Positions 1 to 20,000 of a stretch of 55,568 bases of DNA are shown piece after piece (position 1 is the stretch's first letter; the number at the start of each line of letters is the position of its first letter). The position numbers were made by a program, and so were the translations under genes. The stretch spans positions 1-55,568 of the IMG/VR virus record IMGVR_UViG_3300029319_000063; one strand, given 5' to 3'. This stretch comes from a virus (taxonomy: Duplodnaviria > Caudoviricetes). The notes beneath the pieces are model-generated. The model searched no databases. It saw only the letters and a list, made by a program, of their open reading frames with translations, and was not told the DNA's origin.

Positions 1-3000
1 CCACCAGATCCAAGAAATGCACTTGAAGCTGTCATGTGAAATTGTCCAGTATCCGTATCATATGTAACAAGTTTATTTATATCAGTTTTTGTTGTAAGTT
101 CAGCAAACAATGTACCACTTGAACTTATTGCTCCACTTGAAGTTATACTTCCAACAAAATTACTTCTACCTGTAATAGTATGTATATCTGCTGGATTATT
201 ATCACCGATAGTTGTATTACCTGTTGATGTTAAAGTTGTGAATGTTCCTGCAACTGCAGTATTTCCACCAATAACAGAGTTATCAATCGTACCACCATCA
301 ATATCAGGTGTATTAATATCTGGACTTGTTAAGGTTTTATTTGTTAAAGTTTGTGCTCCGTCTGTTGTTGAAAACACCGTACCCACATTTGGTAGAGTTA
401 AAGTATTACTAGCTGCATCAGAATGTGGTGCTGCTTTAATTGTTTGAAAATGTGCATTTGCATCGTCACAATACATTTTAATTTGTGATTGAGCACCTTG
501 ATTTTTTATATCTAAAGTTCCTGATACAATTTGAATATCACCTACTGAAAGTATTGATGTTGATGAACCACTTATATTTCCTTGTACTTCAAGGAAAGCA
601 TCTCCAACTCCATCAATTTGTAAATTACCAAATGAACCAGTCAAACTTGAACTTATGTCTCCAGTTGCTCTGATGTTTCCACCCACAGATAGTTTTGCTG
701 AAGAAACTCCACTTGTACCAATACCAATTGCTTCATCACCCGCGTCTGCATGAAACAATGGTGTTCCAGATAAAAAGTTATGAGTATCACCTAAAATATA
801 TGTATCTACATCATTATTAAGTGAATTAATCCAGGTTATAGAAGTTCCTGAATAATTACCCAAAACAATTTTGTTTTGAGCCGTAGCTGTAGCATTACTA
901 TTTTGTAATGTTAAGGTACCAGAACCAGAAACAGCAGGTGTTCTTACATGGCCACTTGCACTTATGTCACCATGAACAGTGAGTTTTTTAGCTGGTGTCG
1001 CAGTGCCAATTCCAACTTTATCACCAGATTGTGGATTAACTTGTAAAAGATTATCATCACTTGAACCTTTTACTTGAAATTTTTTGTCATCATTACCATC
1101 ATTAAATGTAATGTCTGTAGTTTCGGTTAATATAAGACCTGCTTGAAATTGCATCTGAGTAGCAGCATCAGCATCAGCTTTAATTGCATCAACACTTATT
1201 TCACCAACATTTGTAATGTTTCCTTCTTTGAAATCAACTGTTCCATTAGAACTTATTCTTAACCTTTCAACTGGAGTTTCATTCAAACTTACATGAAATT
1301 GTAAATTTCCATCTGCTGTATCAGTAGACGCGTATGTATCATCTCTACCACTTACTATTTTTGAAGTTAATACAGTTGGAACTCCACCTGCTATACTTCC
1401 AGCTGCAGCTCCGAAATTTAAAGTCGTGGTTTCATTCTCTGAATTGGCTGCAGAATTTCTTATTGTGAGTGAAACATCACCACCATCGTTATTTTTTTCT
1501 ATGGTAGTATTACCATGAAAATAACCTGCACTAGCAGTTAAGTCACCACTTGCACTTATATGATTATTGAATGCAGCACTTCCAGCGTCTGACATATCTA
1601 ATGTCAATGCAGTTATGGTAGAACCACCATCTTGTCCTTTAAATATTATATCGTTATTATTTGATTCTGCTTTAATAACAAAGTTTGATGAATCTCTTTT
1701 AAATCTACCAAATGATGTTCCTCCATCTTTTAAAAGTATATCAGCTCCATCCGCGTCAATTGTAAGGTCACCAAGAGCACTTAACTCTGATGTTATAATT
1801 TTTCCACTTGCACTTATGTTTCCACTTGCGGTTATGTGTGATTTTGTTGAAATGAATCCACTTGCACTTATGTTTCCTGCTACTGTTAGTTTTTGTGGAA
1901 TATTATCAAAAATTCCAACACCAACATTTCCATTACTACCACTAATAGTTAAAGCATCACCTGCAAACGGGTCACCTGTATAAAACGACATTCTTGTTCC
2001 AACACCATCATCAAGCATTCCAATGTTTAAATCACCATTAGCTTCTTTTGTAATGGTTTGTTCACCATTCATAAAAATATTAGTACTTGTTGCACTTTTT
2101 AAATCTAATTTATTTCCAAAAAGATTTCCACTTGCACTGATATATCCATCAGCAGTTATGTTTCCACTTGCGGTTATGTGTGATGATGTTTTTAAATCAC
2201 CTGTTATATCTAATTTTGAAGTTGGACTATTGTTGCCTATTCCAATACTATCTGCAGAAGCATCAGCAACAAAAAGAGTATCATCTCCTTGACCTTTTAT
2301 AGTTGTGTCAAAATTATTACCTGAACTATTAAGAGTTGTTGTTCTTGGAACATCTAAACTTAAAGCTGTTAATGTAGAATCATTGAATTGTAGATTTGTA
2401 TTGTCTTTTAAAACTCCATTTGTATCAACATATACTACTCTTCCACTTGTTAAACTTGTGTCTTGTAATTCATTACCGACAATAGTTCCACTTGAACTTA
2501 TGTTTCCACTTGCGGTTATGTGTGAGGTTGTTAAAGTATCTGCAGCTAGTGTACCACCAAAGATTCCAGTTCCTGATGATAACATATCACCATCTTCATC
2601 TATACTAAATCTTTCATTTTGAAGTGCACCTACTACTGTGAATAATTTTTCATTAGAAGAAGCGGTATGTTTTTTTATGTGCAAACCACTTGAAGTTACA
2701 TGACCACTCGAACTTATGTTTCCAACTACTTCCAATGCTTCACCAGGTTCATTAGTAACATCAAATCCTCCACCAATACCAACTTTACCAGATGATGATA
2801 CGAATAAAGCACCTGTTGATGAATGTCCATCTACTCTAAAAGCACCTGCACCTAAACCAGTTGCACCAAGTTGAATAATGTCATTGCTAAAAAACATCTG
2901 TCCATATTGTCCTACACCTCTACCCAAACCAGCACCTTCAGAATCAAATATAATATCATCACCCACATTTAAATCATCTGTTGTTGTTAATTGTTCTGCA

Positions 3001-6000
3001 ATTATTGTTCCACTTGCGGTTATGTGACCACCTAATCCAACAGTTAGATAATCCGTTCCATCTGAACCCTCTACGATTAATGTTTCATTTGTAGCATTCA
3101 CACCTGATACATGTAAAACTGCCCCTGCAGTATCACCAGTTGTAAACGCTCCAACACCCATAATAGGTGAGTCTATGTTTACTTTGACATCTGATTTTAT
3201 GACAGCTTGATTATCTGATTCAAATACTAAAAAATCATCTTTTCCCTCAATTCTTTGAGTATCATTACCAAATTCTATTCTTTGTGTAGCAGTATTATCA
3301 GCTGGATTTATTAGTCTGATTGGTCCACCAAATATATGAGTACCACCACCACTTGCTGAAATATTTCCACTTGCGGTTATGTGTGATGTTGTTTCAATTG
3401 GAACACTAAATTTAGTAGTATTATATTTAAATTCTGTGTTAATTATATTATTAACTCTTAATTCTATTTCATTTTCTGCTGGTGAATGTATAAAATCATC
3501 TTCAGTTCCACCATTAACAAGTATAAATTTATTTGATTTAATATCACCACTCGCACTTATGTTTCCACTTGCGGTTATGTGATTAAATGTAACATTATCA
3601 GATGAACCAAATTGAAGTGAACTGCTTATTACCCCATTAGGTAAAGTCGTTGTGGCAGTTACATTTGTCAATCCACTACCATCACCACTAAAATGTGAAG
3701 CTGATACGAATCCACTTGAACTTATGTTTCCACCTACCACCAATTTTTCTGTGGGAGTTGTGTTTCCTATACCAGTATTACCATCGTTTAATATTCTCAT
3801 TCTCTCAGTATCATTGGTATGAAAAGCTACTGCTCTATTCGCAACTGCATGAATGTTAAACACATCACCAGCGGTGGTTATTTTATATTCAATATTATCA
3901 GATTCATCTTTGAATTGTATTTGATGGTCATCATCATCGGTTGTATCTTTCAATACTAATATTGGTGCACCCTCTGACATTATAATTCCACCATTGGCAG
4001 ATGTAAATCCATCAGCAGTTATTGTTCCACTTGCACTTATGTTTCCACTTGCGGTTATGTTTCCTTCAAATGAAGTTTTACCAATAATTGTATGTGTATC
4101 TACATTACTTTGGTTACCAAATTTTACATTATCACTTGCGGTTAGGTTTCCAACTGCACTTATGTGACGTGTAAATATTTCCTCTGAAACTAAAAATCCG
4201 CTTGAACTTATGTTTCCACTTGCGGTTATTGTTCCATTAGTAAAAATTGATGGTGTGGCATTTTTTCTTCCAAGATTAATTCGACCAAGACCATCAGGAC
4301 TCACTCCATAACCGAATGTTAATTCGTTATCAGATTCTAATGTAAGTAGGTCTTTTCCTTGTATATAATACCTATTACCTTTAATTATTCCACTTGCACT
4401 TATGTCTCCACTTGCGGTTATGTGTGCTCCACTTCTTCCAATTTTTATATTGTTGATACCGCCATCATCAAACAATACACCTGTATCACCACCAGTAGAA
4501 TCTACTGCGACAAAGTTATCAACCGTTAATCTACTTGTTTCTATTATTCCACTTACACTTATGTTTCCACTTGCGGTTATGTGTGAATTTGTAAATATAT
4601 TACCATTAACATCAAGTGTTGCAGTATTGTTATAATTTAATGCTCTATTTATACCAACTCCATTAAAACCTGTTCCTTGAAAATTAATATCTGTGCTTGA
4701 TATTAAAATAGAATCAAAAGTTGGTGAGTAAGTTATATTATCATCATTTAAATCTGAAGGATTCAAAAATACAGAGTGAGCACTTGGACCAACAACTATA
4801 CCACCATTGAAAAAGCTTTTTCCATTTCCACTTGCACTTATAACGCCACTCGCAGTTATATCACCAAAAAATGTATGTGTGTCAGTAGCTTCATTTCCAA
4901 ATATACTATCACCACTTGATGTTATGTTTTCTATCAATATGGATGTGGATGATGAAACTATTGATGAGGTTATTTCATTTACATTCATTGAACCAGCCAC
5001 ATCTAAATTTTGTACATAAACAGTATTGGATGCAGATGTATGTCTACCACTCATACCCAATATAACAGAACCACCATGTAAAACACGATTTGATGAACCA
5101 CCAATTATAGCAGAATCTTCAGGAGCTCCTCCACCAGGTGGTGATGATTGAGATAATATTCTATTATATCTACCACCTACAATTACATTACTAAAACTAC
5201 TGTTTTGGATGTGATTAAATAAACCACCAATAATCACTTGGCCAAACATATCCGCACCTCTATTATTAATAAGGAAATTACCAACACCACCGACAAGAGC
5301 AGAATTTTTTATAGTTCCAGCTGAAGCAGAAATTTCACTACTAGCAGCTCCTATTATTTGAGAGGCTATGTCGTCAGTAGTATCATGGTGAATGATTCTA
5401 GAGTTAGTTCCACCAACTATGGTAGAAAGTTTAGATGCACTAATTCTATTTAGTGTACCACCAAATAATCCAGAATTATCAGAAGCTTCTAATTTACTAC
5501 TACTACCACCAATTATGATAGAATTATCAGAGGCTGTTATGGATGAGGAAACTGAACCTAAAAGTTGAGCATCTATCGAAGATGTTAATTCATTACTTTC
5601 ACTATCACCAATGAATTGTCCTTTTTCTGAAAGTGCAAATGTTTTATCTTTTTGATTGGGTTCTTTGAATGTGAACTCTAAAGTTCTTTCCTCTGGTACC
5701 TTACCACCCCCTTTTGCTTTAAAGCCTAATTCAAATCCGGTATCTTTATCACTACCAAACACGATGGTAGCATTGTCTACCACTACATTATCAGTTGTTT
5801 CTATAGTAAGTGGTGTTCCACCAACAGATGATATTGAACCTGTTACAACTATATCTTTTTCAGATTCATTTGTAAAATCTTGAGCGTATCTTCCTTGACC
5901 ATCAATAAATCTTAATTTAAAATCAACTTGTTTATTTCTACGAACATCTCTTGGTAAGGGAATTTTAGATAAATTTGATAATGGATTTAATCCAGCAGCG

Positions 6001-6692
6001 TATATTGATTCACTAACTTCATATGGACTTCCAGTAATTGGATATCTTGATATAACTTTAAAATCAGGAGTTTGTGATTTTACCTCTCGATAAGATACCT
6101 CTAAAAATTTAATTTGTCCACTAATTAATTTAAGGTGACTAGCACTAACATTTAGGTAACTTCTTTTATATCGAGTAGAACCTACATCTGTAGTTACTGT
6201 TTCTGTAAAATTAGTTCCTATTTGTGTATTGGATATATTATCAAATATAATAGGTGAAATATTTGGAGTGTCTTTTTCTATTTTAATTGGAATAGAATAT
6301 CTTACATTTGGTACACCTCTCCATCTACTTGGAACATTCTCTAACTCACCTATTATAGTTAGTGTTCCTACACCATCTGCAATTTCATCGTAAATTCTTA
6401 ATGGATCTTTTTTCAACCAAACATAACAAATAACAGAACCATTAATCACCTCATAATCAGACACATCAGAAAATATAATATTTCCGTCAGAATCTTTAAA
6501 TTCAAAGTTTAGGGGTGAACTATCTTTTAATCCATCACCATACCACGATATTGAAAAATAATGTTTTCCGTAACTTAAACTATAAGGAAGATTTGAAACT
6601 TTAAAATATTTTCCACCATCCTCAGAGTGTACTGGTATCCTATCTAAATCTTTAACATTAGGATATATATTTTTATATGTTCCTGTTGACAT
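1..6692 (-). CDS. Long modular tail fibre / receptor-binding protein, 3'-partial (>2230 aa, runs off the window start)
   Basis: ATG at 6692 (MSTGTYKNIYPNVKDLDRIPV...) with GGAG upstream. The same frame is still open at the window start (...DTDTGQFHMTASSAFLGSG). It is missing from the ORF track, consistent with no stop inside the window. Contains repeated HITASGNISASG and VGIGxxxPxxKLxVxG motifs and xxIGG-type repeats at ~5090-5620. Confidence 0.85.
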   Translation of the reverse strand, partial: MSTGTYKNIYPNVKDLDRIPVHSEDGGKYFKVSNLPYSLSYGKHYFSISWYGDGLKDSSPLNFEFKDSDGNIIFSDVSDYEVINGSVICYVWLKKDPLRIYDEIADGVGTLTIIGELENVPSRWRGVPNVRYSIPIKIEKDTPNISPIIFDNISNTQIGTNFTETVTTDVGSTRYKRSYLNVSASHLKLISGQIKFLEVSYREVKSQTPDFKVISRYPITGSPYEVSESIYAAGLNPLSNLSKIPLPRDVRRNKQVDFKLRFIDGQGRYAQDFTNESEKDIVVTGSISSVGGTPLTIETTDNVVVDNATIVFGSDKDTGFELGFKAKGGGKVPEERTLEFTFKEPNQKDKTFALSEKGQFIGDSESNELTSSIDAQLLGSVSSSITASDNSIIIGGSSSKLEASDNSGLFGGTLNRISASKLSTIVGGTNSRIIHHDTTDDIASQIIGAASSEISASAGTIKNSALVGGVGNFLINNRGADMFGQVIIGGLFNHIQNSSFSNVIVGGRYNRILSQSSPPGGGAPEDSAIIGGSSNRVLHGGSVILGMSGRHTSASNTVYVQNLDVAGSMNVNEITSSIVSSSTSILIENITSSGDSIFGNEATDTHTFFGDITASGVISASGNGKSFFNGGIVVGPSAHSVFLNPSDLNDDNITYSPTFDSILISSTDINFQGTGFNGVGINRALNYNNTATLDVNGNIFTNSHITASGNISVSGIIETSRLTVDNFVAVDSTGGDTGVLFDDGGINNIKIGRSGAHITASGDISASGIIKGNRYYIQGKDLLTLESDNELTFGYGVSPDGLGRINLGRKNATPSIFTNGTITASGNISSSGFLVSEEIFTRHISAVGNLTASDNVKFGNQSNVDTHTIIGKTSFEGNITASGNISASGTITADGFTSANGGIIMSEGAPILVLKDTTDDDDHQIQFKDESDNIEYKITTAGDVFNIHAVANRAVAFHTNDTERMRILNDGNTGIGNTTPTEKLVVGGNISSSGFVSASHFSGDGSGLTNVTATTTLPNGVISSSLQFGSSDNVTFNHITASGNISASGDIKSNKFILVNGGTEDDFIHSPAENEIELRVNNIINTEFKYNTTKFSVPIETTSHITASGNISASGGGTHIFGGPIRLINPADNTATQRIEFGNDTQRIEGKDDFLVFESDNQAVIKSDVKVNIDSPIMGVGAFTTGDTAGAVLHVSGVNATNETLIVEGSDGTDYLTVGLGGHITASGTIIAEQLTTTDDLNVGDDIIFDSEGAGLGRGVGQYGQMFFSNDIIQLGATGLGAGAFRVDGHSSTGALFVSSSGKVGIGGGFDVTNEPGEALEVVGNISSSGHVTSSGLHIKKHTASSNEKLFTVVGALQNERFSIDEDGDMLSSGTGIFGGTLAADTLTTSHITASGNISSSGTIVGNELQDTSLTSGRVVYVDTNGVLKDNTNLQFNDSTLTALSLDVPRTTTLNSSGNNFDTTIKGQGDDTLFVADASADSIGIGNNSPTSKLDITGDLKTSSHITASGNITADGYISASGNLFGNKLDLKSATSTNIFMNGEQTITKEANGDLNIGMLDDGVGTRMSFYTGDPFAGDALTISGSNGNVGVGIFDNIPQKLTVAGNISASGFISTKSHITASGNISASGKIITSELSALGDLTIDADGADILLKDGGTSFGRFKRDSSNFVIKAESNNNDIIFKGQDGGSTITALTLDMSDAGSAAFNNHISASGDLTASAGYFHGNTTIEKNNDGGDVSLTIRNSAANSENETTTLNFGAAAGSIAGGVPTVLTSKIVSGRDDTYASTDTADGNLQFHVSLNETPVERLRISSNGTVDFKEGNITNVGEISVDAIKADADAATQMQFQAGLILTETTDITFNDGNDDKKFQVKGSSDDNLLQVNPQSGDKVGIGTATPAKKLTVHGDISASGHVRTPAVSGSGTLTLQNSNATATAQNKIVLGNYSGTSITWINSLNNDVDTYILGDTHNFLSGTPLFHADAGDEAIGIGTSGVSSAKLSVGGNIRATGDISSSLTGSFGNLQIDGVGDAFLEVQGNISGSSTSILSVGDIQIVSGTLDIKNQGAQSQIKMYCDDANAHFQTIKAAPHSDAASNTLTLPNVGTVFSTTDGAQTLTNKTLTSPDINTPDIDGGTIDNSVIGGNTAVAGTFTTLTSTGNTTIGDNNPADIHTITGRSNFVGSITSSGAISSSGTLFAELTTKTDINKLVTYDTDTGQFHMTASSAFLGSG
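1803..4585 (-). repeat. Dispersed in-frame direct repeat (core CACATAACCGCAAGTGGA on the coding strand = HITASG) separating fibre modules
   Basis: Plus-strand tccacttgcggttatgtg occurs exactly at 1821, 2163, 2505, 3009, 3366, 3564, 4407 and 4566, and near-exactly at 4044 and 4215. Most copies are extended by a ccacttg(c/a)acttatgtt-like sequence. All copies are in the same codon phase. Confidence 0.92.
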
Positions 6693-6763: not shown

Positions 6764-9700
6764 TTAGTGATAAGTAACCTTACTAATACCATTTTGTACT
6801 TCAATTGGGATTAAACTATCCATATAATCTTTAATTGTATCCAAGTGAGTAATAATCATTGTAAAATCAAATTGAGTCCTCAAGTATTGAAATGCTCCCT
6901 GCATATTAGCAATATTATCACTATCCAAAGCACCGAATCCTTCATCTACGATAATGAAGTTTGGTCGAGGTAATGTTGATACATTGATTAAACCTATCCT
7001 AATAGCCAATGATGATACAAATCTTTCCATTCCACTTGATAATTCAAGATTCCATTTATCCTCACCATAACATATAAAGGCATCAATCATTTTATCTTTC
7101 ATCTCTAATTCAATATGGAAACCTGCATTCATATTTTCCAATACATTGTTGATTTCTCTTTCTATTGATGGAATAGCTTTTGAGATTAATTCATAAGGAA
7201 CACCATCTTTGGATAGAGCCATTAAGTATAAATCATAATCTAATATCTTTTGTTCTATATCAACAAGTTTCTGAATATCATCTTCTATCTGTTGTTTTTG
7301 GTTTTTAGCTACTGATAATGTGGAAAGAACTTGTTTGTATTTTTTATCAATATCAATAGATTCCATTTGTAGTTGGGATATTTTAGAAGTCAAATCAGAA
7401 ATTTGTTCATTTAATTTATTGTTATTTTCAATCTTTTCTTCTAACTCATAATATCTTTTTACACTCGAATCTAAATTAACCAACTCACTATCGATATGTT
7501 TTAATCTACTTTCTTGTGTCGAAATTTTACCACCAATCTTAACAGCATCATGTGATATTTGATTTAGTTCTTCAGAAAATATTTTAAATTCACGATTTCT
7601 TTCATCAGCATCTCCTAACTTTTCTAAAGAGTATGATTTTATTTTAAATTGTGTTTCCCATTTTTGCCATTCATCATCTAAATGGTACATTTGAGTTTTA
7701 ATCTCATCCATCTCATTAATCTGTTCTTTACCATTTTTAACACAATACTCACAATCTTCATCATATTCAAACTTTTCCAAATCGGTTCTATGTTTAGCTA
7801 AAGATTTTGTTTTAGTTTCAATCAACTTCATTTGATTTTGAACATCTCTTAAATCTTTTGTAGTTTCTTTCCAATTTTCATAATCTTCTTGTATTTTCTC
7901 TTCATCTATTTCAGAAAGTTTTTTATGATATTCCATATACATTGGTCTAAGAGTTTCTTTATATTCTTTGTCTTCTTTAAGCTGATTTTCTAATTGTGTT
8001 TTTTCAAGATTTAATTTTCCCCGTAATGAGTTCAATTCATCTATATCATAATTCTCATCAATTTTATATAGTTTTCTAACTAACTCTATTTTATTTTCTT
8101 CTAATTCAGATAAAGTTTTATCAATCAATTCATCTTCAGTTTTTAATTTTTCTTCATCTATTTCCAATTCAGTAATTCGTTGATTAATAACACCAATCTC
8201 TTTGTAAGAATCTTTCTTTTGGAATTGTCGTAACATTACTCGTTCTTCATTGGAATCAGATTTTGCTATCGTTTCGAGTTGTTCAAACACCTCGATATCC
8301 ATAAATGTGGAAAGAATTTTTTTTCGTTCCGCTTGTTTCTTGTCGAGAAAGTTCATACCATTCGTTTGTAGCGACAGTGAGGTAAGGATAAAGTCGTCAA
8401 ATGTACCTAACACTTTACGAATTTCTTCATTCGTACCTGTACCATATGACGAATTAAACCTAGCCGCTCCACTTAAATCCACTTCTTCACCTGCATCATC
8501 TATCATATAGAATCTAACCTTCACTGGACATTGATGAGATACCTTACCATTCTTGTGATTCACTCTTTTATACTTAGCATCTCTCTCTATCCAATAATCA
8601 TTACCATTGATTTCAAGATTTAATTTTGCTTTAAATGTAGTTTTCTTTTTATTCATTACATCCAACGCTCGATTAGTTCTACTACATACATCATAGATTG
8701 TATAAGCAATTGCATCCATTATTGATGATTTACCTGAATGGTTAGGAGCGACAATCCCGACAGTACCATCAAGTTTTTCAAAATCTATTTTATTACCTTT
8801 ACCATAACAAAACATATTATCAAATTCAAATGATTTTATTTTCCAATCTACATTCCTTGTAATATCACCATCGTATATTTCCGGTGAGTTGTTTGTCATT
8901 TTGTTTATCTCTTGAACTCTTTTGATTGTATCTTCATCGACACCTTCAACATTTCTTTTTAGAAAATCTTCTAATAATTCATTTTGATAATTAATATCTC
9001 TTACATCACCAATATCTAACTTATTTTCTCTATCGTCACCAATTGAAATATTGTCTTGTCTTTCGGTTACTATTTCTTTTAACTTTGGATATTGTTTTCT
9101 TAAACCGATTTGAATATCTTTAATTTGTTCCAATGTGGTGTTTGTAAATTTAATTTTAACTCTACCTTTTGGTGGCATAAATGTTAATTCAAATGGATTG
9201 TTTCCAGTTGTTGAGTTTTGTATTTCACCATCTACTACATTTAATATTTTATATCCATAATCATTTTCTACTTGATGATAAGTAGCTTTTCTTTTCTCTA
9301 CATCCCATAATAAGAATCCGTGACTTGGTTCTTCTGAATAATTCTGTTGAATCAATGAACCTGGATAAGCTACTCTTTCATCTTTATCTAAAAATTGCCT
9401 TTTATGGATATCACCTAACATTACCATATCATATCCTTGAAATGTTTCTACTGTGACTCTGTCATCTGTAACAGCAAATCCATTATCATAAAAGTGTTTA
9501 TCCACTCCACCGTGAAACAATGCAACTCTAACATCACCATCTAAATTATGTGGATTAGGTAAATTATTTGTAATTTGTTTACCCTCTTTATCAATATCAA
9601 ATATAGACATCACACCAAAATCAACATTATCCATTGTATAAACACCTGATTTCTTCCAATAATGTAAATTTGGTGTAATCTTCTGAACTAAATCAACAAT

Positions 9701-9991
9701 AGGTGAAAGAGTATCTTCTCTTGATTTATTATTCAAATTACAATCGTGATTACCTGGTATAATAATCGTAGGAGCTATTTTACATAACTCTAAAAAGAAG
9801 TTTGCAACCATTCTGACTTCTTCAGGTGATGTATCTAACTTTCCGTGAACCACATCACCACCAATATAGATTGCATCTGGTTTTAAATCTTTTAATTGTT
9901 TGTATAGTTTTTTAAATACTTGTCTATATTCTACAAACCTATGTAGTTTACGAATATGTATATCTGCTAAATGTGCAATTGTTTTAATCAC
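6764..9991 (-). CDS. Fused SbcD/Mre11 nuclease and SbcC/Rad50 ATPase (T4 gp47-gp46-like recombination nuclease)
   Basis: Phosphoesterase motifs ADIH, GGDVVH, GNHD, GDIH, YPGS. Then Walker A APNHSGKSS, coiled coil with zinc-hook CEYC, signature LSSGME, Walker B IIVDEGFGALD and H-loop ITH. Confidence 0.93.
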   Translation of the reverse strand: MIKTIAHLADIHIRKLHRFVEYRQVFKKLYKQLKDLKPDAIYIGGDVVHGKLDTSPEEVRMVANFFLELCKIAPTIIIPGNHDCNLNNKSREDTLSPIVDLVQKITPNLHYWKKSGVYTMDNVDFGVMSIFDIDKEGKQITNNLPNPHNLDGDVRVALFHGGVDKHFYDNGFAVTDDRVTVETFQGYDMVMLGDIHKRQFLDKDERVAYPGSLIQQNYSEEPSHGFLLWDVEKRKATYHQVENDYGYKILNVVDGEIQNSTTGNNPFELTFMPPKGRVKIKFTNTTLEQIKDIQIGLRKQYPKLKEIVTERQDNISIGDDRENKLDIGDVRDINYQNELLEDFLKRNVEGVDEDTIKRVQEINKMTNNSPEIYDGDITRNVDWKIKSFEFDNMFCYGKGNKIDFEKLDGTVGIVAPNHSGKSSIMDAIAYTIYDVCSRTNRALDVMNKKKTTFKAKLNLEINGNDYWIERDAKYKRVNHKNGKVSHQCPVKVRFYMIDDAGEEVDLSGAARFNSSYGTGTNEEIRKVLGTFDDFILTSLSLQTNGMNFLDKKQAERKKILSTFMDIEVFEQLETIAKSDSNEERVMLRQFQKKDSYKEIGVINQRITELEIDEEKLKTEDELIDKTLSELEENKIELVRKLYKIDENYDIDELNSLRGKLNLEKTQLENQLKEDKEYKETLRPMYMEYHKKLSEIDEEKIQEDYENWKETTKDLRDVQNQMKLIETKTKSLAKHRTDLEKFEYDEDCEYCVKNGKEQINEMDEIKTQMYHLDDEWQKWETQFKIKSYSLEKLGDADERNREFKIFSEELNQISHDAVKIGGKISTQESRLKHIDSELVNLDSSVKRYYELEEKIENNNKLNEQISDLTSKISQLQMESIDIDKKYKQVLSTLSVAKNQKQQIEDDIQKLVDIEQKILDYDLYLMALSKDGVPYELISKAIPSIEREINNVLENMNAGFHIELEMKDKMIDAFICYGEDKWNLELSSGMERFVSSLAIRIGLINVSTLPRPNFIIVDEGFGALDSDNIANMQGAFQYLRTQFDFTMIITHLDTIKDYMDSLIPIEVQNGISKVTYH

Positions 9992-13777: not shown

Positions 13778-16700
13778 TTAATTACTATTAACTTGTTTTT
13801 CATATATATCTTCTACCCAAGTAACGGGAGAATAACTATCTACTGGTATTGTTAATTTTCTAGCCTCTGTTGTATTATTATAACCAATGGCATCTACAGG
13901 TATTTCTAACTTATCAATTAAATTTAAATTTTTAACTACAATGTTTTGAATTTTAGATATTAAATTATTATTAAATAAAGGTAAAAATGGATTATTATTT
14001 AAATACAAATTAATAAAAAGGTCGGGTATATCTGAAAAACAATTATTTCCTCCAATTGATAAATCGTCATATGTCATAGATATATCCAAAGCTTCTGAAT
14101 TATAACTATCATCATTTTGATTATAATTTAAATTATTAGTATCTATTTCAACTTCAATAATATAATTATTTGTAGTAACTTCAAAATTATTTTTATAATT
14201 ATTTAAATCATTTCTATCAAATCCATCTTCTTCACTCGTTGGATTTAAATCACATGCAGAATTAAGACAAGTTTGAGGATAAAACGCGAATGGTAGTGTA
14301 AATACCGAAAGCACAGAGGCATAAGTAGAAAACACACTATAACAATCTGGTACAATTAATTCAAAGCCTTCACAACTAGCTTCAGTAGCCCAAAAAGTAA
14401 AAGGAACATTTAACTCTATATCTTCAATATGTAACCTCAATTTCAATATTCCTGTATCAATATATTCATTTATATCAACATTTATGTTTAAATTATAATC
14501 CATTTCTGCAAAATTAGAGTCAAAAAATAAATCACAATTGAATGTCGAAGTAGAGCCTTCAATTGCTGATGTATTGATGTCAAACTCACTAAGCATTTCA
14601 TCTACAGAGTCTCTAATAACCTTATTAAATAAAGAGGTTATGGCTGCGTTTAAAATACTAAATGAACCATTCTGTATAGGAGTATTGGGAACAAGTAAAC
14701 CATTAAATGAATTACTTAAATACTCATACATATCTACATTTTGTTGATAGAAAGTTGTCATGTAGTAAAAATTTGAAGAATTAGGTGGAGTCCAAATCTG
14801 TCCTTCATCATAATTAAAATATTTTGTATATGAAAGACCTGGATAACTTTGTCTCCTCCAATTATTTGGATTGTTTATACCTTCTGTATTACCTGGAGAG
14901 AAAAAGCCTTTTAAATTCCATAAAGTACTATTAATTGATGTAATCCCAGCTCCACCACTTAACTCCCCTCTATTACTGATATCTAATCCATCACTAAATT
15001 CAGAGTTAGTAAATAATATATTATGATTAAAAGATCTATGAGTATCACTTAATCCGGGTGCACCTAAACCGATAACTTCCATTTTAAGTGCTCTAGACCA
15101 ATAATCCATATCTCTACCAAATGCTTTATCTTTAGAAAATTGCCAACCACCAATTGATTTACAACCAGAAACAACAATATTAGAATTTAGTTGTGAAAGT
15201 GTAAAATTATGTCTACCTCTGTGTCCTTCACAATTTTTAAACAATATATCATTTGAAAGGGTGGAAAGAAATAAATATCCATTACTGTTTTGTCCTCTAT
15301 TTTGTGGATTTTTTAATATACAATTTTTAATGGTTATATTTGCACTATCAACAATATTAATACCAACGGATTGTATATGTCTTTGCCAATGCCCTTGTTG
15401 ATAAGAAAAATCTAATGGTAAGTTTTCGTTTTCTGTAAGATATGTTATCATATCTGTAGCTGCTTCATAATATATATCATATAAACTATAATCATTTAAT
15501 TGATTTATTCCACCAGTAAAATAATTATCGAATACAGGTGCATTAACTATCCCAAGTTTTGCAAATTCTTCTATTATTGTTGTAACATCACCTTTTGGGC
15601 GATCTCCTCCGAAGAAACCTGGATTTGTCCAAGTTTGATATTGCCATGGATGATTAACACCATCATTAAACACTATTTCACCGTTTAAATCATATCCAAT
15701 TTCTCCACTTGTATCAACACCTACAAAATAATCACTTGGAGCAAATGAATGGACATTTTCAATCCAACTATTAACAACATTGTTAAAATATATGATATTT
15801 GTCGCGTTATTCTTCCAAGCTTCATCATAAGATCGATTAGCATTAGATATATTTAAATCCATTATTCCAACATTTTCTACAAGTCCTCCAGCTAATTTTC
15901 TAACTTTAGGTCGATGAATATGATTATCTTCAAAATAATTTGTACCTAAACTATCCTCATGATGATAACCACCTTCATAAGCTTCCTTTAACAATTTAAT
16001 AAAAGATGTTGGTAATGGACTTTTAAAATAAAGTTTGTTTCCTTCTATTCTGTCTATTTGCTTTTTATAATTATACGTTACTGGAGCTCCAGTATCTAAA
16101 GTAAATGTTTCATCATTTTCCCAATCATCACCTTCCATATTCATATAATTTATAAAATTTGGCCATAGGCTAAATTCTATAACTATCCAACCAGTATCAT
16201 TAAAATTGTTATCTCCATCAATGGTTATATAATTTTCAGTTATAGATGTTATGGGAGCTCCATGTATATATGATAACTCTTCTTCACCCCCAACTATTAT
16301 ACCAGATGTATTTTCATCTGAATTAAACCATAATTGTGTTAAAGGTTCTCCTACAGGACCTGTAACTTCGCCTTTTAAAATAATGTTAGATTTTAATTCA
16401 ATAGGTGTTTCAAATTCAAAAGAGTCTTGAGAAAAACAAACAACACCTCCATTAGAATTTTCAGATAATTCATTTATTAATCCATTTAAAATACCAGTAT
16501 CACATACACCATCAATATTACAAGGACCCGTAGAAAATTCTTGATATGTTCCCTCTATGTATTGTACATAAGAACCAGGAGTAATTGTTAAATCACATGA
16601 AAGATTTAAATTTTCTGAAGTTGAACCATTGTAATTTCTCCCAACCTTTGAATAATCAGGAATAAGTGGTTCGGTTGTTATGTTTTGAATTTGATTTATT

Positions 16701-17020
16701 ATATCCAACACATTAATCGTATTATCTTGATTAACATCAGCAGCCCATTGTTGACATGGTGTATACTCAACATCACCTAATGTATTCTGAACCATCACAA
16801 TTAAGTCTACAACATTTATAAAACCATCACCATTTATATCTCCCAACTCATACCCAAGTTCTTCAATACATTGTAAAGGACAAGAAGCATCAATAAATGG
16901 ATAAGTATCACATTGTTCGTCTGTAAAAACTTGCCTTGAATCTATTAATGATTTATATATTCTTCTTAACTCATTTGTAGACATTTTTTGTAATTTATAT
17001 TTTGGATATTTATTTTTCAT
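13778..17020 (-). CDS. Dockerin-containing right-handed beta-helix (pectate-lyase-like) protein, putative depolymerase/adhesin
   Basis: Paired dockerin loops GDINGDGFINVVD and ADVNQDNTINVLD (~16680-16843). GGVVCF..LKSNIILKGE and beta-helix rungs ENVGIMDLNI, NSWIENVH, NITIKNC, DILFKNC..GRHNF. Confidence 0.7.
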   Translation of the reverse strand: MKNKYPKYKLQKMSTNELRRIYKSLIDSRQVFTDEQCDTYPFIDASCPLQCIEELGYELGDINGDGFINVVDLIVMVQNTLGDVEYTPCQQWAADVNQDNTINVLDIINQIQNITTEPLIPDYSKVGRNYNGSTSENLNLSCDLTITPGSYVQYIEGTYQEFSTGPCNIDGVCDTGILNGLINELSENSNGGVVCFSQDSFEFETPIELKSNIILKGEVTGPVGEPLTQLWFNSDENTSGIIVGGEEELSYIHGAPITSITENYITIDGDNNFNDTGWIVIEFSLWPNFINYMNMEGDDWENDETFTLDTGAPVTYNYKKQIDRIEGNKLYFKSPLPTSFIKLLKEAYEGGYHHEDSLGTNYFEDNHIHRPKVRKLAGGLVENVGIMDLNISNANRSYDEAWKNNATNIIYFNNVVNSWIENVHSFAPSDYFVGVDTSGEIGYDLNGEIVFNDGVNHPWQYQTWTNPGFFGGDRPKGDVTTIIEEFAKLGIVNAPVFDNYFTGGINQLNDYSLYDIYYEAATDMITYLTENENLPLDFSYQQGHWQRHIQSVGINIVDSANITIKNCILKNPQNRGQNSNGYLFLSTLSNDILFKNCEGHRGRHNFTLSQLNSNIVVSGCKSIGGWQFSKDKAFGRDMDYWSRALKMEVIGLGAPGLSDTHRSFNHNILFTNSEFSDGLDISNRGELSGGAGITSINSTLWNLKGFFSPGNTEGINNPNNWRRQSYPGLSYTKYFNYDEGQIWTPPNSSNFYYMTTFYQQNVDMYEYLSNSFNGLLVPNTPIQNGSFSILNAAITSLFNKVIRDSVDEMLSEFDINTSAIEGSTSTFNCDLFFDSNFAEMDYNLNINVDINEYIDTGILKLRLHIEDIELNVPFTFWATEASCEGFELIVPDCYSVFSTYASVLSVFTLPFAFYPQTCLNSACDLNPTSEEDGFDRNDLNNYKNNFEVTTNNYIIEVEIDTNNLNYNQNDDSYNSEALDISMTYDDLSIGGNNCFSDIPDLFINLYLNNNPFLPLFNNNLISKIQNIVVKNLNLIDKLEIPVDAIGYNNTTEARKLTIPVDSYSPVTWVEDIYEKQVNSN

Positions 17021-20000
17021 GATTTTGTATTTTTAAAATTAATTGAATAAGTTTATTTCTTTCATCATCTTGTGAATTTAAAATTTTATTTATTAGTTTT
17101 CCTTTTACTCTTTTTTTACGAGTTCTTTTTTTATTTTGTTTTAATCTCATTTCAAGTTTTTTAAATAAGGTTGTTAACTCTTGTTTGGTATTTTTTATAC
17201 GATTGTATGAATCTGTATTCATATTAAATGAATCTTCCATATCTTCTTTTGATGCTGGTTGTCCTTCTTCTATAACTTCCATGAATAAGTTAGTGGTTTG
17301 TTCATCATTTAAAATCATATTTACAAGTTCAATAATATCTAATATATCAACATTTCCATCTTGATTTATATCACCATAAGAATACCACTGGTGTTGAAAA
17401 CCAGACATACCATCATCTTCGAAAGCAGCACATTGTTGTGATGTTGTTGGAAATGGTAATAAAGGATTATCAATAGACCATGTAACAAAATCATAATCAT
17501 TATCTTCACAAAACGATTCTAATTCTTCTGGACAATATAAATAACACAATCCAAGTTCATTTGGGAAAGCTTGATTGTTTAAAATATATTGAGTTAAACT
17601 TATTACATCTAACACATTAATTACACCATCTTGATTTATATCTCCAATAATTTCATTTTGAAATGGAAGACCAATACACTCTCTTTGCGGTATAAGAGCG
17701 TCATCGTTATAATCAGCTTCTGTTCCATAAAACCACATATTGGTGTTTGCACCATCACAATGCCCAAATGTAACATCTCGTAGTTGTGAACCTATATCGT
17801 AAATTTTTTCTCTTTTTCTTAAAAATGTTAAGTTTGGATTTGCTCTTGAACTTCCAGGTTTAATTTGACTATTTGTGTAAAACCTATATCCTCCTGTTCC
17901 ACCACCAACGGAATAATTCATAGAACGTATGACAGATCTACATCCAGGAAATTTATGTGGTTCTAAATTATCATCATAAGATTCACATAACATGCCGCCA
18001 CCAATCAAAGGTGAATCTTCTTTATATACAGCATTGTCAGGAAAACAACAAGTATTATTAGTAGCATTATTATAATGTATCCTTAATTCAGATGGTGTTA
18101 TAGTGTATTCACCTCTAGCGTTACCATTCATTGAATGCCATTTTCTATTAGATCTAAAAACTGGTAAAGTTTTATAAGAAGATGAGGTATCATCATCAGG
18201 GTCTGAAGATATTTGCATATCTATACTCCAAACTCTATCAGTAAAACATCCATCTGGTGCACCTTTTAAAAATGGGTGAAAATCCCATTTCCTAACATAA
18301 AATTTACCAGGAATCAATTCTCCTGTTTCTGAACCTACTACATTTTGATATCTATATCTAACACCATGAAATCCATCAACTAAATCATTCATTGATATCG
18401 ATTCTTGACTGACTGGATTTCCTATTTCTAAATAAGTTCCAGACCTATAACCAAGTGTTATGGCTGAATGAGCTTGATTCCAACTCCAAGAACCTGGACA
18501 CAATCTTCCTGCCTTTGTTAAAGCTGTACCAAAGTTACCATCAGGATAAAGATATATTAAAGTATAATATGGATTTTCTTCATCACATAATGGTTGTTCT
18601 AATGTTTCATCATATTCCCAAAATGAACCAGCATAATTTTCTATACCAAGTTCTTCTAAATTTGCACACTCCCATTCCGTAGCTTCTATTGTGTAAACAG
18701 TAGTAACAACATCTTCTATTTCTTCCGTATCATCTACCAATGAATCTCCTGAGGGAGGTGTGTCAAATGGATCAGCATAATCAGGCGTTGGTTCATCAGG
18801 TGGAAGAGTGGGATCTCTAAAAGTGGTTTCTATAACTTCATATGTACATATACCTCGTGGTGGAGCACAAAAACCATCATCACTCCAATAAAACATTTTC
18901 ATGTATATAGTATCACTCCAATCATAAGTGCACGAACCATCATCTATTGTTTTTTGGATACCATAATTGATTGCAAATGGATTAGTACAACCGATACATT
19001 CATTTGGAGCTGGTTGATCTATTGGATAACATACACCGCAATCATCTATATCATGAGTTCCTGCAGGACAATCACAATATGCGTCCTCTTCACCACAGGT
19101 TTGAAAAATCCAACCTGGTCCTGGATCTTCACAAAAGAAAGTACCCTGAAAAACTCCGTTTATAAAACAACAACCAATTCCATCTCCATCTGGATCTGGA
19201 AAGTATCCTAATAATTCAACAGAACCATCACACGAACATTCAGCTCCAGGATCTCCGAGATATGTACAACACCAATTTTCTACCCCATCTTCCGTAGTAC
19301 AAGTAAAAGTAGCGTCTGGATCATAATTACATGCCGATTCATCAGTGCAACCTGTACACGACCAACCATCTCCGCCACATACACCACATTGATCATAGTT
19401 TAGTGGGCAATCATCACAATCACCATCACCATTAAGTACATATAAATTTGGATCTGGATTGTTACAAGCTTGAACAACTAAATCAGGACATCCAAAACCA
19501 TCACCGTCCGTATCAAGATAATATAACAAACCATAATAACATGCTCCATTATCATCGGTTGCTTGACTATCATAATTACATGCGGTAGGGTCAGTACAAC
19601 CAAGAAAAACATAACTACATGAATCATCATGCCAAAATGCATTGGGATTATAATTTGCAGCTTGTGGATCCATGCATCCTGGTACATCATAATACCCACC
19701 ATTTCCTATATATTTACATTGACCATTACATCCGAAAGGATATTGTTCTTCAGGACACATGTTTGAATCACCTGGATTATAACAACCTCCACCACCTAAA
19801 CCTAAATCATTAGTGACACAAATCGTATCTTCAGGACAAATTCCATCATTTGGATTAGGACCTGGAATACACTCACCTGGAGGGTGATAATTTTCTATTG
19901 TACATGGTGGTCCATTTTCTCCAACACAACCATCATAATCATTGTCATATTGTCCACACCAATTTCCATCAAATTCAAAAAATTCAGGATGTGAAGGATG

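Follow-up and report, generated by a model that had tools for sequence, protein, structure and literature searches.

In T-even phages, the 'His boxes' of gp37 and the glycine-rich motifs (GRMs) of gp38 separate hypervariable segments (Trojet et al. 2011, PMC3157838, citing Tetart 1996, 1998). As that account presents them, these proteins resemble the tail-fibre gene described here in placing short, highly conserved motifs between variable, specificity-bearing segments, and our junction, like the gp37 'His boxes', has a conserved His, with which it starts. The two differ in that one uniform 36-nt unit is used ten times in a shaft of more than 2230 aa, as against five distinct motifs in the 260-aa adhesin of that account; our fibre has no sequence relationship to the T-even motifs (Pfam and PHROGs searches of the gene gave no match), and its junction shows rare-codon identity across a large uncultured marine pool, known here from sequences rather than from crosses.

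Cassette-based antigenic variation in Borrelia (the 17-bp repeats of vlsE) and Neisseria (the conserved segments of pilE/pilS) likewise involves variable cassettes flanked by short conserved repeats that lie in frame and steer gene conversion or recombination with the frame kept, an arrangement that our fibre appears to share. Those systems have silent donor cassettes in one genome and frequent programmed conversion. For our fibre no silent archive was seen and homogenisation within the gene was not detectable; its modules appear to be donated by other phages or by paralogous fibre genes. Shufflons, invertible segments (Cin, Min, Gin) and diversity-generating retroelements also diversify phage receptor-binding proteins; unlike the repeats of the invertible systems, however, all 11 copies here are direct and none is inverted, and the 55.6-kb record (about 30% complete) yielded no resolvase/invertase, tyrosine recombinase or reverse transcriptase. 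The modular theory of phage evolution, attributed to Botstein in 1980, reportedly invokes conserved linker or boundary sequences. Mobile PeSL regulatory cassettes have been described in T4-type genomes (Arbiol et al. 2010, PMC2839356). Such linkers and PeSLs, so far as that description extends, are comparable to our junction as short shared module-border sequences acting as sites of homologous exchange between diverged phages, but they are mostly intergenic or at gene boundaries, whereas the candidate handle lies inside one reading frame and has to work as part of the protein as well.

The fibre gene and its junction repeat

The window (the whole 55,568-nt stretch of viral DNA analysed) carries a tail-fibre-like gene of at least 2230 aa, its 3' end lying past the window start (Table 1). 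Its N-terminal anchor domain (aa 1 to ~330) is followed by a GG-rich repeat region and by 11 junction-separated modules of 53-168 aa each. By tblastn, aa 1608-2007 weakly matched annotated Pelagibacter and Roseobacter phage tail-fibre genes, and 148 long homologues were found, with PF13884 in 32 of 120 among the matches listed. Among solved structures, sequence similarity was limited to one chain, a 'cell wall surface anchor family protein' (PDB 8ol4 chain A, E=1.5e-4), which matched aa 953-1031, a sub-motif ('...MRI.N.GN.GIG...P.EKL.V.GN') that precedes several junctions; this likeness concerns one sub-motif of one module only, and the chain is without the H-ITASGN-ISASG junction.

Ten in-frame copies of ATAACCGCAAGTGGA were present in the gene, each inside an island of about 36 nt encoding H-ITASGN-ISASG. 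The ten copies (≤1 mismatch) start at 1819, 2161, 2503, 3007, 3364, 3562, 4042, 4213, 4405 and 4564, and their spacings (342, 342, 504, 357, 198, 480, 171, 192 and 159 nt), every one a multiple of 3, are exactly those given by the first-pass annotation. All ten have in common the exact 15-mer ATA ACC GCA AGT GGA (gene sense), and over codons -1 to +10 they agree with the canonical form at 28-36 of its 36 nt. Scanning the window for TTTCCACTTGCGGTTATG (+ strand) with ≤2 mismatches gave 11 matches (seven exact, three with one mismatch, one with two), all on the + strand between 1801 and 4581, against 0 in 100 dinucleotide shuffles. The eight exact copies reported by the same annotation depend on framing (seven for the 18-mer scanned, eight for a 17-mer), and the degenerate versions that it placed at ~120, ~955, ~1545 and ~4830 are present with partly different codons (ACT, GCG, GGC, GGT).

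Table 1. Positions in the window of the fibre gene, its junctions and neighbouring features.
Feature	Position	Strand	Identity to canonical form	Remarks
Tail-fibre-like gene	3..6692	minus		only long frame over span; ATG at 6692
Second nucleotide-conserved island, peptide LTSPDINTPDIDGGTIDN	281..333	minus		not the hexapeptide junction
Degenerate hexapeptide unit H-ISASGD	1542..1559	minus		closes widespread ~90-aa module, aa 1620-1712
Junction 11, HITASGNISASG	1803..1838	minus	36/36	aa 1619-1630
Junction 10, HITASGNITADG	2145..2180	minus	32/36	followed by third hexapeptide unit
Junction 9, HITASGNISSSG	2487..2522	minus	35/36	
Junction 8, HITASGTIIAEQ	2991..3026	minus	28/36	unit 1 canonical, unit 2 lost
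Junction 7, HITASGNISASG	3348..3383	minus	30/36	ATT TCA in second unit
Junction 6, HITASGNISASG	3546..3581	minus	34/36	
Junction 5, NITASGNISASG	4026..4061	minus	35/36	followed by third unit ITADGF
Junction 4, TITASGNISSSG	4197..4232	minus	31/36	
Junction 3, HITASGDISASG	4389..4424	minus	35/36	
Junction 2, HITASGNISVSG	4548..4583	minus	35/36	
Degenerate junction 1, DITASGVISASG	4827..4862	minus	28/36	other codons ACT GCG GGC
Predicted fused SbcD(Mre11)-SbcC(Rad50)-like nuclease/ATPase, 1075 aa	6764..9991	minus		Metallophos domain and SbcC-like phrog_77

A trimer model of three copies of aa 1385-1645 scored 0.91 (best control, 0.13), a mark that 21 of 30 solved one-chain pairs but none of 23 single chains attained; these counts are only rough for three copies, and resemblance to solved fibres may account for the pass. 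Agreement among runs covered at least 98% of contacts, with partner pLDDT of at least 92, and the model places its three junctions in the inter-chain interface, within the continuous stretches 1391-1413, 1496-1531 and 1604-1629.

Codon identity and spread of the junction

In binomial tests of the junctions against the remainder of the same gene, ACC was used in 10/10 cases vs 19/211 (9% of Thr codons; P=3.5e-11), CAC in 8/8 vs 8/34 (P=9e-6), AAC in 7/8 vs 28/165 (P=3e-5) and GGA in 10/10 vs 92/245 (P=6e-5), with ATA (P=1.4e-3) and GCA (P=3e-4) also at 10/10. Since ACC is invariant in the junctions and makes up 9% of Thr codons elsewhere, codon bias cannot explain the junction identity; the window's other 27 ORFs used ACC in 62/1054, CAC in 45/258 and AAC in 225/1365 cases. 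Neighbouring-codon context does not explain the junction codons either: C-ending codons occurred in 30/170 cases before ATA vs 364/3052 before codons without initial A, and ACC in 4/44 following ATA. The proposal that selection on protein alone is insufficient thus held, the codon identity exceeding both bias and context.

A codon-neutral scan for the peptide in AT-rich loci (ORFs of at least 150 aa, outside loci L039-L045) gave 122 instances, in which the canonical codons CAC (82/122; fibre background 0.36), ATA (104/122; 0.55), ACC (66/122; 0.11), GCA (91/122; 0.46), GGA (93/122; 0.37) and AAC (81/122; 0.22) were all raised. All six variable codons were canonical in 37 copies vs 14.3 expected, and canonical codons co-occurred at 9 of 15 site pairs (P<0.01, odds ratios 1.8-7.5), a haplotype-like linkage in keeping with a single sequence, inherited or homogenised, and not with codons chosen independently. 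In a second conserved motif, VGIGT, the codons fixed for the same amino acids (Ile ATT 34, ATC 24, ATA 4; Thr ACA 48/59) are not those of the junction, which argues against a general optimal-codon effect. Synonymous-site identity of junction copies was 0.769 within one gene vs 0.767 between phages, a difference reached in 126/300 permutations; with no within-gene excess there is no sign of intragenic gene conversion, and that part of the first-pass annotation was not borne out, although a universal codon constraint would give an identical outcome.

The exact 18-mer, which the annotation had proposed to look for in related viral contigs, recurred at 45 IMG/VR loci (38 non-redundant ORF clusters, window included), always in frame and in fibre-like ORFs whose products are highly diverged from the window's (25-40% protein identity; 37-39% in the N-terminal anchor domain). 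Exact matches of at least 25 nt to the window gene were found in 37 of 74 other non-redundant fibre ORFs; 36 of these 37 overlap an ITASG junction, and 20 reach 36 nt or more. Almost every letter of the 36-base junction, those of the rare codons included, is kept in many marine phage fibres that otherwise differ greatly.

Modules and mosaicism among fibres

BLASTP among the window's modules gave two weak pairs. By shuffle z, modules m5, m8, m9, m10, m11 and m12 are mutually related (most pairs 3-8.7; 1.2-2.3 for m5/m12, m8/m9, m9/m10, m10/m11 and m11/m12), whereas m1, m2, m3, m6 and m7 have no relative among them (z <3), so that the original description of unrelated, non-aligning cassettes applies to the latter five, about half of the spacers being distant paralogues. 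The module at aa 1620-1712 lies at positions 25 to 1946 in homologues of 1231-3144 aa, and four homologues have two copies of it. Two loci (L012 and L022) have in common a 561-nt block of 92.5% identity with both ends exactly in junctions and unalignable flanks, two others (L023 and L044) only a C-terminal module starting at the junction, and one module is common to different genes (L019+7554 and L044+1190).

We analysed block ends in 75 non-redundant ORFs, whose 525 islands represent 5.2% of bases. Blocks of ≥150 nt and ≥85% identity ended at an island in 27 cases and crossed it in 29 (0.48 per encounter) vs 0.109 ends per 36 nt of module; for ≥90% identity the figures were 13 and 21 (0.38) vs 0.044. 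High-identity block ends were 4-9 times commoner per 36 nt at hexapeptide islands than within modules, an enrichment inflated by BLAST extension into conserved islands (≥70% identity was demanded in 30 nt inside the island) and drawn from ORF pairs that are not independent events. Exchanged fibre segments tend to start and stop at the junction. Module content and order differed between fibres and block ends were enriched at the repeat, as the first-pass annotation envisaged, but most ends lie elsewhere, two thirds of internal ends (54/81, 51+3; blocks ≥150 nt, 85% identity) being off islands. No high-identity exchanged block with the window's own gene was found among the compared fibres; its best nucleotide match (81% over 218 nt) begins 40 nt from a junction.

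Four marine runs, each from a different study, gave 668-1135 contigs that could be placed on the stretch, of which 360-571 fit two places. Loose contig ends at junction edges (1839, 4024, 4061-4065, 4390 and 4420-4425) had a low consensus agreement of 0.52-0.77, which indicates that many different flanks adjoin the same junction. At each exact junction copy in the window the k=31 contigs are interrupted, and short-read metagenome assembly can yield mosaic contigs that are chimeras formed at shared repeats. In run X5, a relative 3-7% diverged had, among the pieces listed, the same order as the window, which counts against exchange.

Origin of the junction codons

On balance we lean towards a single account in which an uncultured marine phage, AT-rich and myovirus-like, makes a very long tail fibre as a trimer of the gene product, and the structural connector of this fibre doubles as the preferred crossover site. 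The fibre would be a chain of modules, some mutually related and some not, linked in the inter-chain interface by two or three hexapeptide units (H-ITASGN-ISASG). Because this connector would be strongly constrained as protein, the junction DNA would be the longest near-identity (35-48 exact bases) between diverged fibre genes, so that when phages co-infect and their fibre genes undergo homologous recombination, or when paralogous fibre genes of a single genome do so, the exchange would preferentially resolve there; since the repeat keeps the frame and is self-contained as a structure, the resulting fibres would be intact, whether they had gained, lost or swapped modules. Repeated exchange via a shared marine gene pool would keep junction synonymous sites identical by descent, which would explain both why the rare codons are fixed and why they are linked as a haplotype, and GC-biased repair at a recombination hot spot might, speculatively, add to the C-ending codons. 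The recombination handle suggested at the outset is consistent with the mosaic relatives and the island-enriched block ends, but finds no counterpart in intragenic conversion or in exchange involving the window's gene, and the canonical state of the second hexapeptide is only weakly tied to that of the first (7/18 vs 6/25), which counts against it. Recombination, rather than another nucleotide-level constraint, probably maintains the junction codons; the connector may have been selected for its crossover role, and the window's own gene presumably underwent past exchange of this kind.

It is rather unlikely that the codons are instead kept by nucleotide- or mRNA-level selection unrelated to recombination (translational accuracy or pausing at trimer-registration residues, for example, or a DNA- or RNA-binding function), with crossovers incidental. 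The equal synonymous identity within genes and between phages is what a universal constraint predicts, CAC, ACC and AAC pair perfectly with G34 tRNAs, third-position C is favoured at codons -1 and +5 whatever the amino acid (in the ascertained set, His CAC 96/CAT 12 and Asn AAC 42/AAT 17 at -1; Asp GAC 13/GAT 14 at +5), and AAC is raised (14/36) in one window gene (22043-23110). Such selection fits poorly, however, with the other fixed codons of VGIGT in the same genes, with Ser being AGT and not AGC (136/138), with the lack of C-ending preference outside the motif, in fibre genes or the window's other genes, with the haplotype linkage and with the 18-mer being in frame in ORFs at all 45 loci. 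Moreover, no RNA structure was found at four junction contexts (z -0.36 to -1.61), an Rfam search gave no match, and no junction 8-mer was over-represented in the other 48.9 kb of the window, so that there is no Chi-like genome-wide signal.

We regard as improbable an ordinary repetitive fibre of diverged tandem-duplicate modules and no ongoing exchange, in which the junction is the slowest-evolving part, its codons come from a fairly recent common ancestor and the variable parts diverge fast under diversifying selection. The mutual relatedness of m5 and m8-m12, two consecutive modules of 114 aa each and the resemblance of the hexapeptide units to tandem 18-nt duplicates all speak for it; yet five modules are without detectable relatives in the gene, the junction nucleotides are the same despite an anchor-domain protein identity at which synonymous sites should be saturated, and sharp-edged blocks of 85-95% nucleotide identity in otherwise unalignable genes require lateral exchange. 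Very improbable, finally, is a mosaic created by metagenome assembly, with contigs jumping at the 36-nt repeat from one co-occurring phage genome to another that shares it: every comparison locus is a metagenome-assembled contig, the junction is an exact 35-48 nt repeat shared among such genomes and k=31 contigs do break there, but three contigs, each from a separate data set (L012, L031, L037), show the L012 architecture (modules m0-m2 100% identical throughout, m4-m7 96.5-100% in the pairs compared), and those of L017/L044, L019/L023/L015 and L010/L016 recur likewise. The L012/L022 block, 7.5% different and with two junction-bounded edges, is also unlike a single chimeric switch, and codon conservation itself would be left unaddressed.

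The recombination nuclease gene reported immediately upstream is present, as a predicted fusion (Table 1), but it is a generic SbcCD, of a type (SbcCD/Mre11-Rad50 fusions) common in large lytic phages, and provides context for the repeat rather than specific evidence for a handle. The second nucleotide-conserved island of the fibre gene has a 53-nt exact match in common with locus L041.

The junction, its codons and its protein

The first-pass annotation had reported ten in-frame copies of an 18-nt core in the fibre gene, and our recount bore this out: ten copies with at most one mismatch were found, at exactly the spacings reported and every one in frame. At up to two mismatches the 18-mer gave 11 matches, all on one strand (1801-4581), while 100 shuffles gave zero. 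The core belongs to an island of 36 nt, hereafter the junction, which spans codons -1 to +10 and encodes H-ITASGN-ISASG. The copies match the canonical 36-mer at 28-36 positions, ATA ACC GCA AGT GGA (gene sense) is exact in ten copies, and the island is built as a tandem pair of 18-nt hexapeptide units, to which two junctions add a third. Ten canonical junctions and one degenerate junction separate modules of 53-168 aa (labelled m1 to m12) in one reading frame.

Codon choice in the junctions departs from that of the gene around them. ACC is used in 10/10 cases in junctions vs 19/211 elsewhere in the fibre gene (P=3.5e-11), CAC in 8/8 vs 8/34, AAC in 7/8 vs 28/165 and GGA in 10/10 vs 92/245; the other 27 window ORFs use ACC, CAC and AAC at 5.9%, 17% and 16.5%, and a strong preference for C-ending codons was not found in any window gene. 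Codon-context bias was rejected as a cause, since the neighbouring codon shifts frequencies only slightly. Thus, by the shuffles and by the codon tests against the same gene and the other ORFs, the nucleotide identity of the junction lies far beyond chance or codon bias, as had been claimed for it. The use of AGT for Ser may partly come from protein constraint, since two steps separate AGY codons from TCN codons.

We read the 2230-aa protein as a tail fibre because of its weak tail-fibre matches, its PF13884-bearing homologues, its structural-gene neighbourhood and a homotrimer model. A tblastn search of 50,697 phage records gave weak matches in five only (four phages; 30-43% identity over 4-16% of the query), in the tail-fibre region of Pelagibacter and Roseobacter phages (one record says hypothetical, one baseplate wedge initiator). 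Among 7996 metagenomic candidates scored, 148 long homologues reached E 1e-5 or better, and of the 120 listed, 32 have PF13884, which we take to be the endosialidase-chaperone / Peptidase_S74 domain of fibres and spikes. Close relatives of the fibre were sought by peptide pattern, with its N-terminal 330 aa on viral contigs and with 600 aa on metagenome contigs, and none was confirmed among the records searched. When aa 1385-1645 were modelled as three copies, the score was 0.91, with 0.13 for the best control. Of solved one-chain pairs 21/30 reached that mark, and of single chains 0/23, a calibration that holds only roughly for three copies; the high score may also stem from resemblance to solved fibres. 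Between runs, at least 98% of contacts agreed, and pLDDT was at least 92. All three junctions of the modelled fragment lie in continuous interface stretches, and we infer from the model that the junction may connect more globular modules and keep the trimer in register. Such a role would account for its conservation as protein, and would let joints made inside it give foldable products.

Spread of the junction and exchange of modules

The exact 18-mer was found at 45 loci in IMG/VR, in frame within fibre-like ORFs in all of them, corresponding to 38 non-redundant ORF clusters with the window counted in. The fibres of these loci are 25-40% identical in protein to the window fibre; identity in the N-terminal anchor domain is 37-39% for the four loci that possess one, representing three ORF clusters (L015 and L023 hold the same ORF), and L028, a fifth locus, aligns with a portion of this domain at 32%. 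Nucleotide alignment of these fibres to the window gene gave almost nothing beyond 40-110 nt around junctions. In an enlarged set, exact matches of at least 25 nt with the window gene were present in 37 of the 74 other non-redundant fibre ORFs, overlapping a junction in 36 of the 37, and matches of at least 36 nt in 20 of the 74, the longest at a junction being 48 nt. Minimal homology for recombination is roughly 25-50 bp; between diverged genes, the motifs appear to hold enough nucleotide identity for a recombination substrate.

Since a scan with the exact 18-mer selects for the codons, it was repeated with a degenerate back-translation of HITASGN, giving at least 118 stretches. With frames shorter than 150 aa (mostly chance matches) and loci L039-L045 (probably not reached by the scan) dropped, this codon-neutral set held 122 instances in AT-rich loci. 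Among the matches listed, these 122 used CAC in 67% (fibre-ORF background 0.36), ATA in 85% (0.55), ACC in 54% (0.11), GCA in 75% (0.46), GGA in 76% (0.37) and AAC in 66% (0.22). The codon preference is therefore real and pool-wide, but weaker than in the window. All six variable codons were canonical in 37 copies vs 14.3 expected, copies with 0-2 canonical codons were also in excess, and the excess codon identity covers codons -1 to +10, fading on either side.

A 46-nt junction query against the 50,697 cultured-phage records gave one irrelevant match only (E=0.8). An exact 18-mer search of 185,579 prokaryote genomes gave 32 matches, about the chance number by our own estimate, 31 of them in unrelated contexts or short frames. 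The sole fibre-like one (L136, 2500-2517) lies in a 1021-aa ORF with 11 hexapeptide units, on a 14.9-kb contig in a Candidatus Pelagibacter MAG bin, and is possibly a weak hint of the host or a mis-binned phage contig. No description of the junction motif was found in the main texts of literature on the peptide motif, pelagiphage tail-fibre mosaicism or synonymous conservation; the part of PMC12379486 that counts tail fibres among viral structural variants does not have it among what is reported.

Module-by-module comparison of the non-redundant loci revealed sharp mosaicism. Two adjacent modules (87-89% protein identity) and nothing else are common to L012 and L022, only the last module (89%) to L023 and L044, and one module (71%) to two different genes, L019+7554 and L044+1190. 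The L012/L022 block, 561 nt at 92.5%, runs from the first base of one junction to inside the next-but-one junction, between flanks of random-level identity. In the first set of loci, 68/284 block ends fell at most 5 nt from an ITASG junction vs 7.6% of random positions, 38-44% lay at hexapeptide or VGIG islands vs 15% expected, and among blocks with solid flanks 26 stopped at a junction and 7 crossed one. The enlarged set (75 clusters, whose 525 islands make up 5.2% of bases) gave 27 stops at an island and 29 crossings (0.48) vs 0.109 block ends in every 36 nt of module where blocks reach 150 nt and 85% identity, and 13 stops and 21 crossings (0.38) vs 0.044 for blocks of at least 90%, counts to be read with BLAST extending into conserved islands and pairs not being independent events. 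Two thirds of block ends fall outside islands. Some of the mosaic contigs may be assembly chimeras; against this, several architectures recur in contigs of different data sets, and the shared blocks are diverged, not identical.

Within the window fibre, the most widely shared piece is the module of aa 1620-1712 (window 1545-1838, about 90 aa), with a canonical junction on one side and a degenerate one on the other, and present at 52-81% identity in 40 of 121 homologues among the best 45 alignments listed. It sits anywhere from position 25 to position 1946 of these homologues, occurs twice in four, and is the part of the fibre that matches cultured Pelagibacter and Roseobacter phage fibres. The modules had been called unrelated cassettes, which is half right: for m1-m3, m6 and m7 the gene holds no relatives, but m5 and m8-m12, about half, are distantly inter-related and have a VGIG...KL.V.G sub-motif in common, which also matches PDB 8ol4 (E=1.5e-4).

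We found no recently exchanged block involving the window gene, the best nucleotide match being 81% over 218 nt, with its start 40 nt from a junction. The proposal of the first-pass annotation, module shuffling through a nucleotide-conserved junction, is thus supported in part: related loci hold probable natural chimeras with crossover points in or beside the motifs, but none was found for the window's own gene. We further compared the window with k=31 contigs of four marine runs from four studies (X1-X3 and X5; one may be the source). These contigs break at every exact junction, so that the comparison covers the stretches between junctions. X1-X3 contigs matched unique window modules without differences, and X5 held a relative diverged by 3-7%, with its listed pieces in window order; per run, 360-571 of 668-1135 contigs fitted two places of the window. 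Loose contig ends at junction edges had low consensus, which means that in these samples one and the same junction is flanked by a variety of sequences. Joints that might represent deletions or duplications from one junction copy to another were listed too, but their shorter side measures 20-33 letters, mostly without a known span, and they may come from other organisms or repeats, so they were not taken as evidence.

What may hold the codons

VGIGT is a second conserved motif of the same fibre genes, often placed before junctions (e.g. window aa 972-976, 1303-1307 and 1893-1897). In the fibre ORFs of the IMG/VR loci L001-L045 and the window its codons are fixed as GTT GGT ATT/ATC GGA ACA, with ATC for Ile in 24/62 vs 7% in the background and ATA in just 4/62. 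A general optimal-codon effect behind the junction codons appears unlikely, because VGIGT fixes different codons for the same amino acids (ATT/ATC not ATA for Ile, ACA not ACC for Thr, GGT then GGA for Gly); position-specific codon fixation therefore belongs to several conserved motifs of these genes. RNA explanations were rejected (no significant fold at the junction, and neither an Rfam match nor a tRNA), as was a Chi-like hot spot, no junction 8-mer being enriched in the remaining 48.9 kb of the window. The synonymous likeness of junction copies, 0.769 within one gene vs 0.767 between phages (126 of 300 permutations), speaks against intragenic gene conversion, and is to be expected of a well-mixed pool and of a universal constraint alike. 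The linkage of the codons as a haplotype fits identity by descent, homogenisation or whole-sequence selection better than codon-by-codon choice.

At slightly better than even confidence, we favour the junction as a structural connector in whose DNA crossovers would preferentially fall when fibre genes of marine phages undergo homologous exchange, its synonymous-site identity arising from recurrent exchange. Under the main rival, a nucleotide- or translation-level constraint would hold the codons, recombination not being involved; the equal likeness within one gene and between phages suits it as a universal constraint, and we regard it as improbable. A further possibility, to which we would give only a minor share of belief, is that of a standardised, pool-wide, in-frame connector whose synonymous identity is kept by second-order selection: fibres with pool-compatible junctions would gain new receptor-binding modules faster, and the rare-codon haplotype would itself be the selected trait.

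With respect to known systems, the nearest parallel is the distal fibre locus of T-even phages, as presented in the part of Trojet et al. (2011; PMC3157838) on conserved motifs, and the window fibre works alike: like the gp37/gp38 type, it alternates short conserved motifs with variable segments in one frame. Unlike T4 gp37/gp38, it belongs to neither of those families (neither Pfam nor PHROGs gave the 2230-aa protein any family); unlike the T-even loci, it has one uniform 36-nt unit ten times along a shaft, and its type of junction keeps rare-codon identity across a large uncultured marine pool. The window fibre comes from an uncultured phage and is known from sequence alone. Because recombination between conserved motifs of tail-fibre genes is already established in T-even phages, what is added here is not a new mechanism but the scale, the uniformity and the signal at synonymous sites. 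A diversity-generating retroelement (DGR) target was rejected, the repeats being ten short in-frame units with no TR/VR pair and the ~30%-complete record giving no RVT_1 match; so was an invertase shufflon of the Cin/Min/Gin type, the copies being all direct and the same ~30%-complete record giving no Resolvase match. Nor did this ~30%-complete record give an integrase match.

The host range of marine phages is set largely by their fibres, which are almost never cultured or annotated. If the reading of second-order selection is true, the junction would be a natural plug-and-play interface for receptor-binding fibres, common to phages whose fibres are 25-40% identical in protein. A junction common to dozens of diverged fibre genes offers a testable handle on fibre diversification that predicts the places of crossovers, and its 18-36-mer a probe for pulling fibre genes and their module repertoires from metagenomes. 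It also provides a natural case for asking whether recombination compatibility, rather than translation, can hold synonymous sites.

The record around the fibre gene

The record, which the window covers in full, is a 55,568-base linear piece of a virus genome, about 30% complete by estimate. GC content is about 30%, the minus strand holds all 28 ORFs counted as genes, and no tRNA genes were found in the window. GC skew is negative in 27/27 profile windows (1-54,000). A baseplate wedge gene, whose best cultured relatives are in Flavobacterium phage 'immuto' (32.6% identity), and several giant ORFs without family, taken together, indicate a large myovirus-like phage as the source.

Features of the fibre gene and its surroundings, in window coordinates
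Feature	Position	Strand	Details
Fibre ORF	3-6692	minus	2230 aa; ATG at 6692; 3' end beyond the window, own C-terminus absent
Second nucleotide-conserved island, not a hexapeptide junction (LTSPDINTPDIDGGTIDN)	281-333	minus	aa ~2121-2137; 53-nt exact match and 93% over 88 nt with related locus L041, whose fibre is diverged from the window fibre outside this match
SbcD-SbcC-type fusion ORF	6764-9991	minus	1075 aa; Metallophos aa 4-197 (Mre11/SbcD-like phosphoesterase) and phrog_77 aa 288-1074 (SbcC/Rad50-like ATPase)
ORFs with one dockerin-type calcium-binding repeat each	13778-17020, 17010-20582		
Giant ORFs of 3103, 1866 and 1353 aa	33581-42892, 23916-29516, 29520-33581	minus	Almost without family assignment; sole assignment of the 3103-aa ORF is Lamin Tail Domain, aa 418-532
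Baseplate wedge gene	47967-50210		phrog_219, E=1e-25

The recombination nuclease gene upstream of the fibre had been noted alongside the proposed recombination at the junction. SbcD/Mre11 and SbcC/Rad50 are usually two genes; the fusion of this type found here is a general recombination and repair nuclease and carries no specific weight in that respect. On the plus strand, two antisense ORFs (3379-3582, 67 aa, and 4402-4635, 77 aa) have their ATG within a reverse-complemented junction (…GGTTATG and …CTTATG); there is no sign of a gene, and these start codons are probably a chance by-product of the motif.
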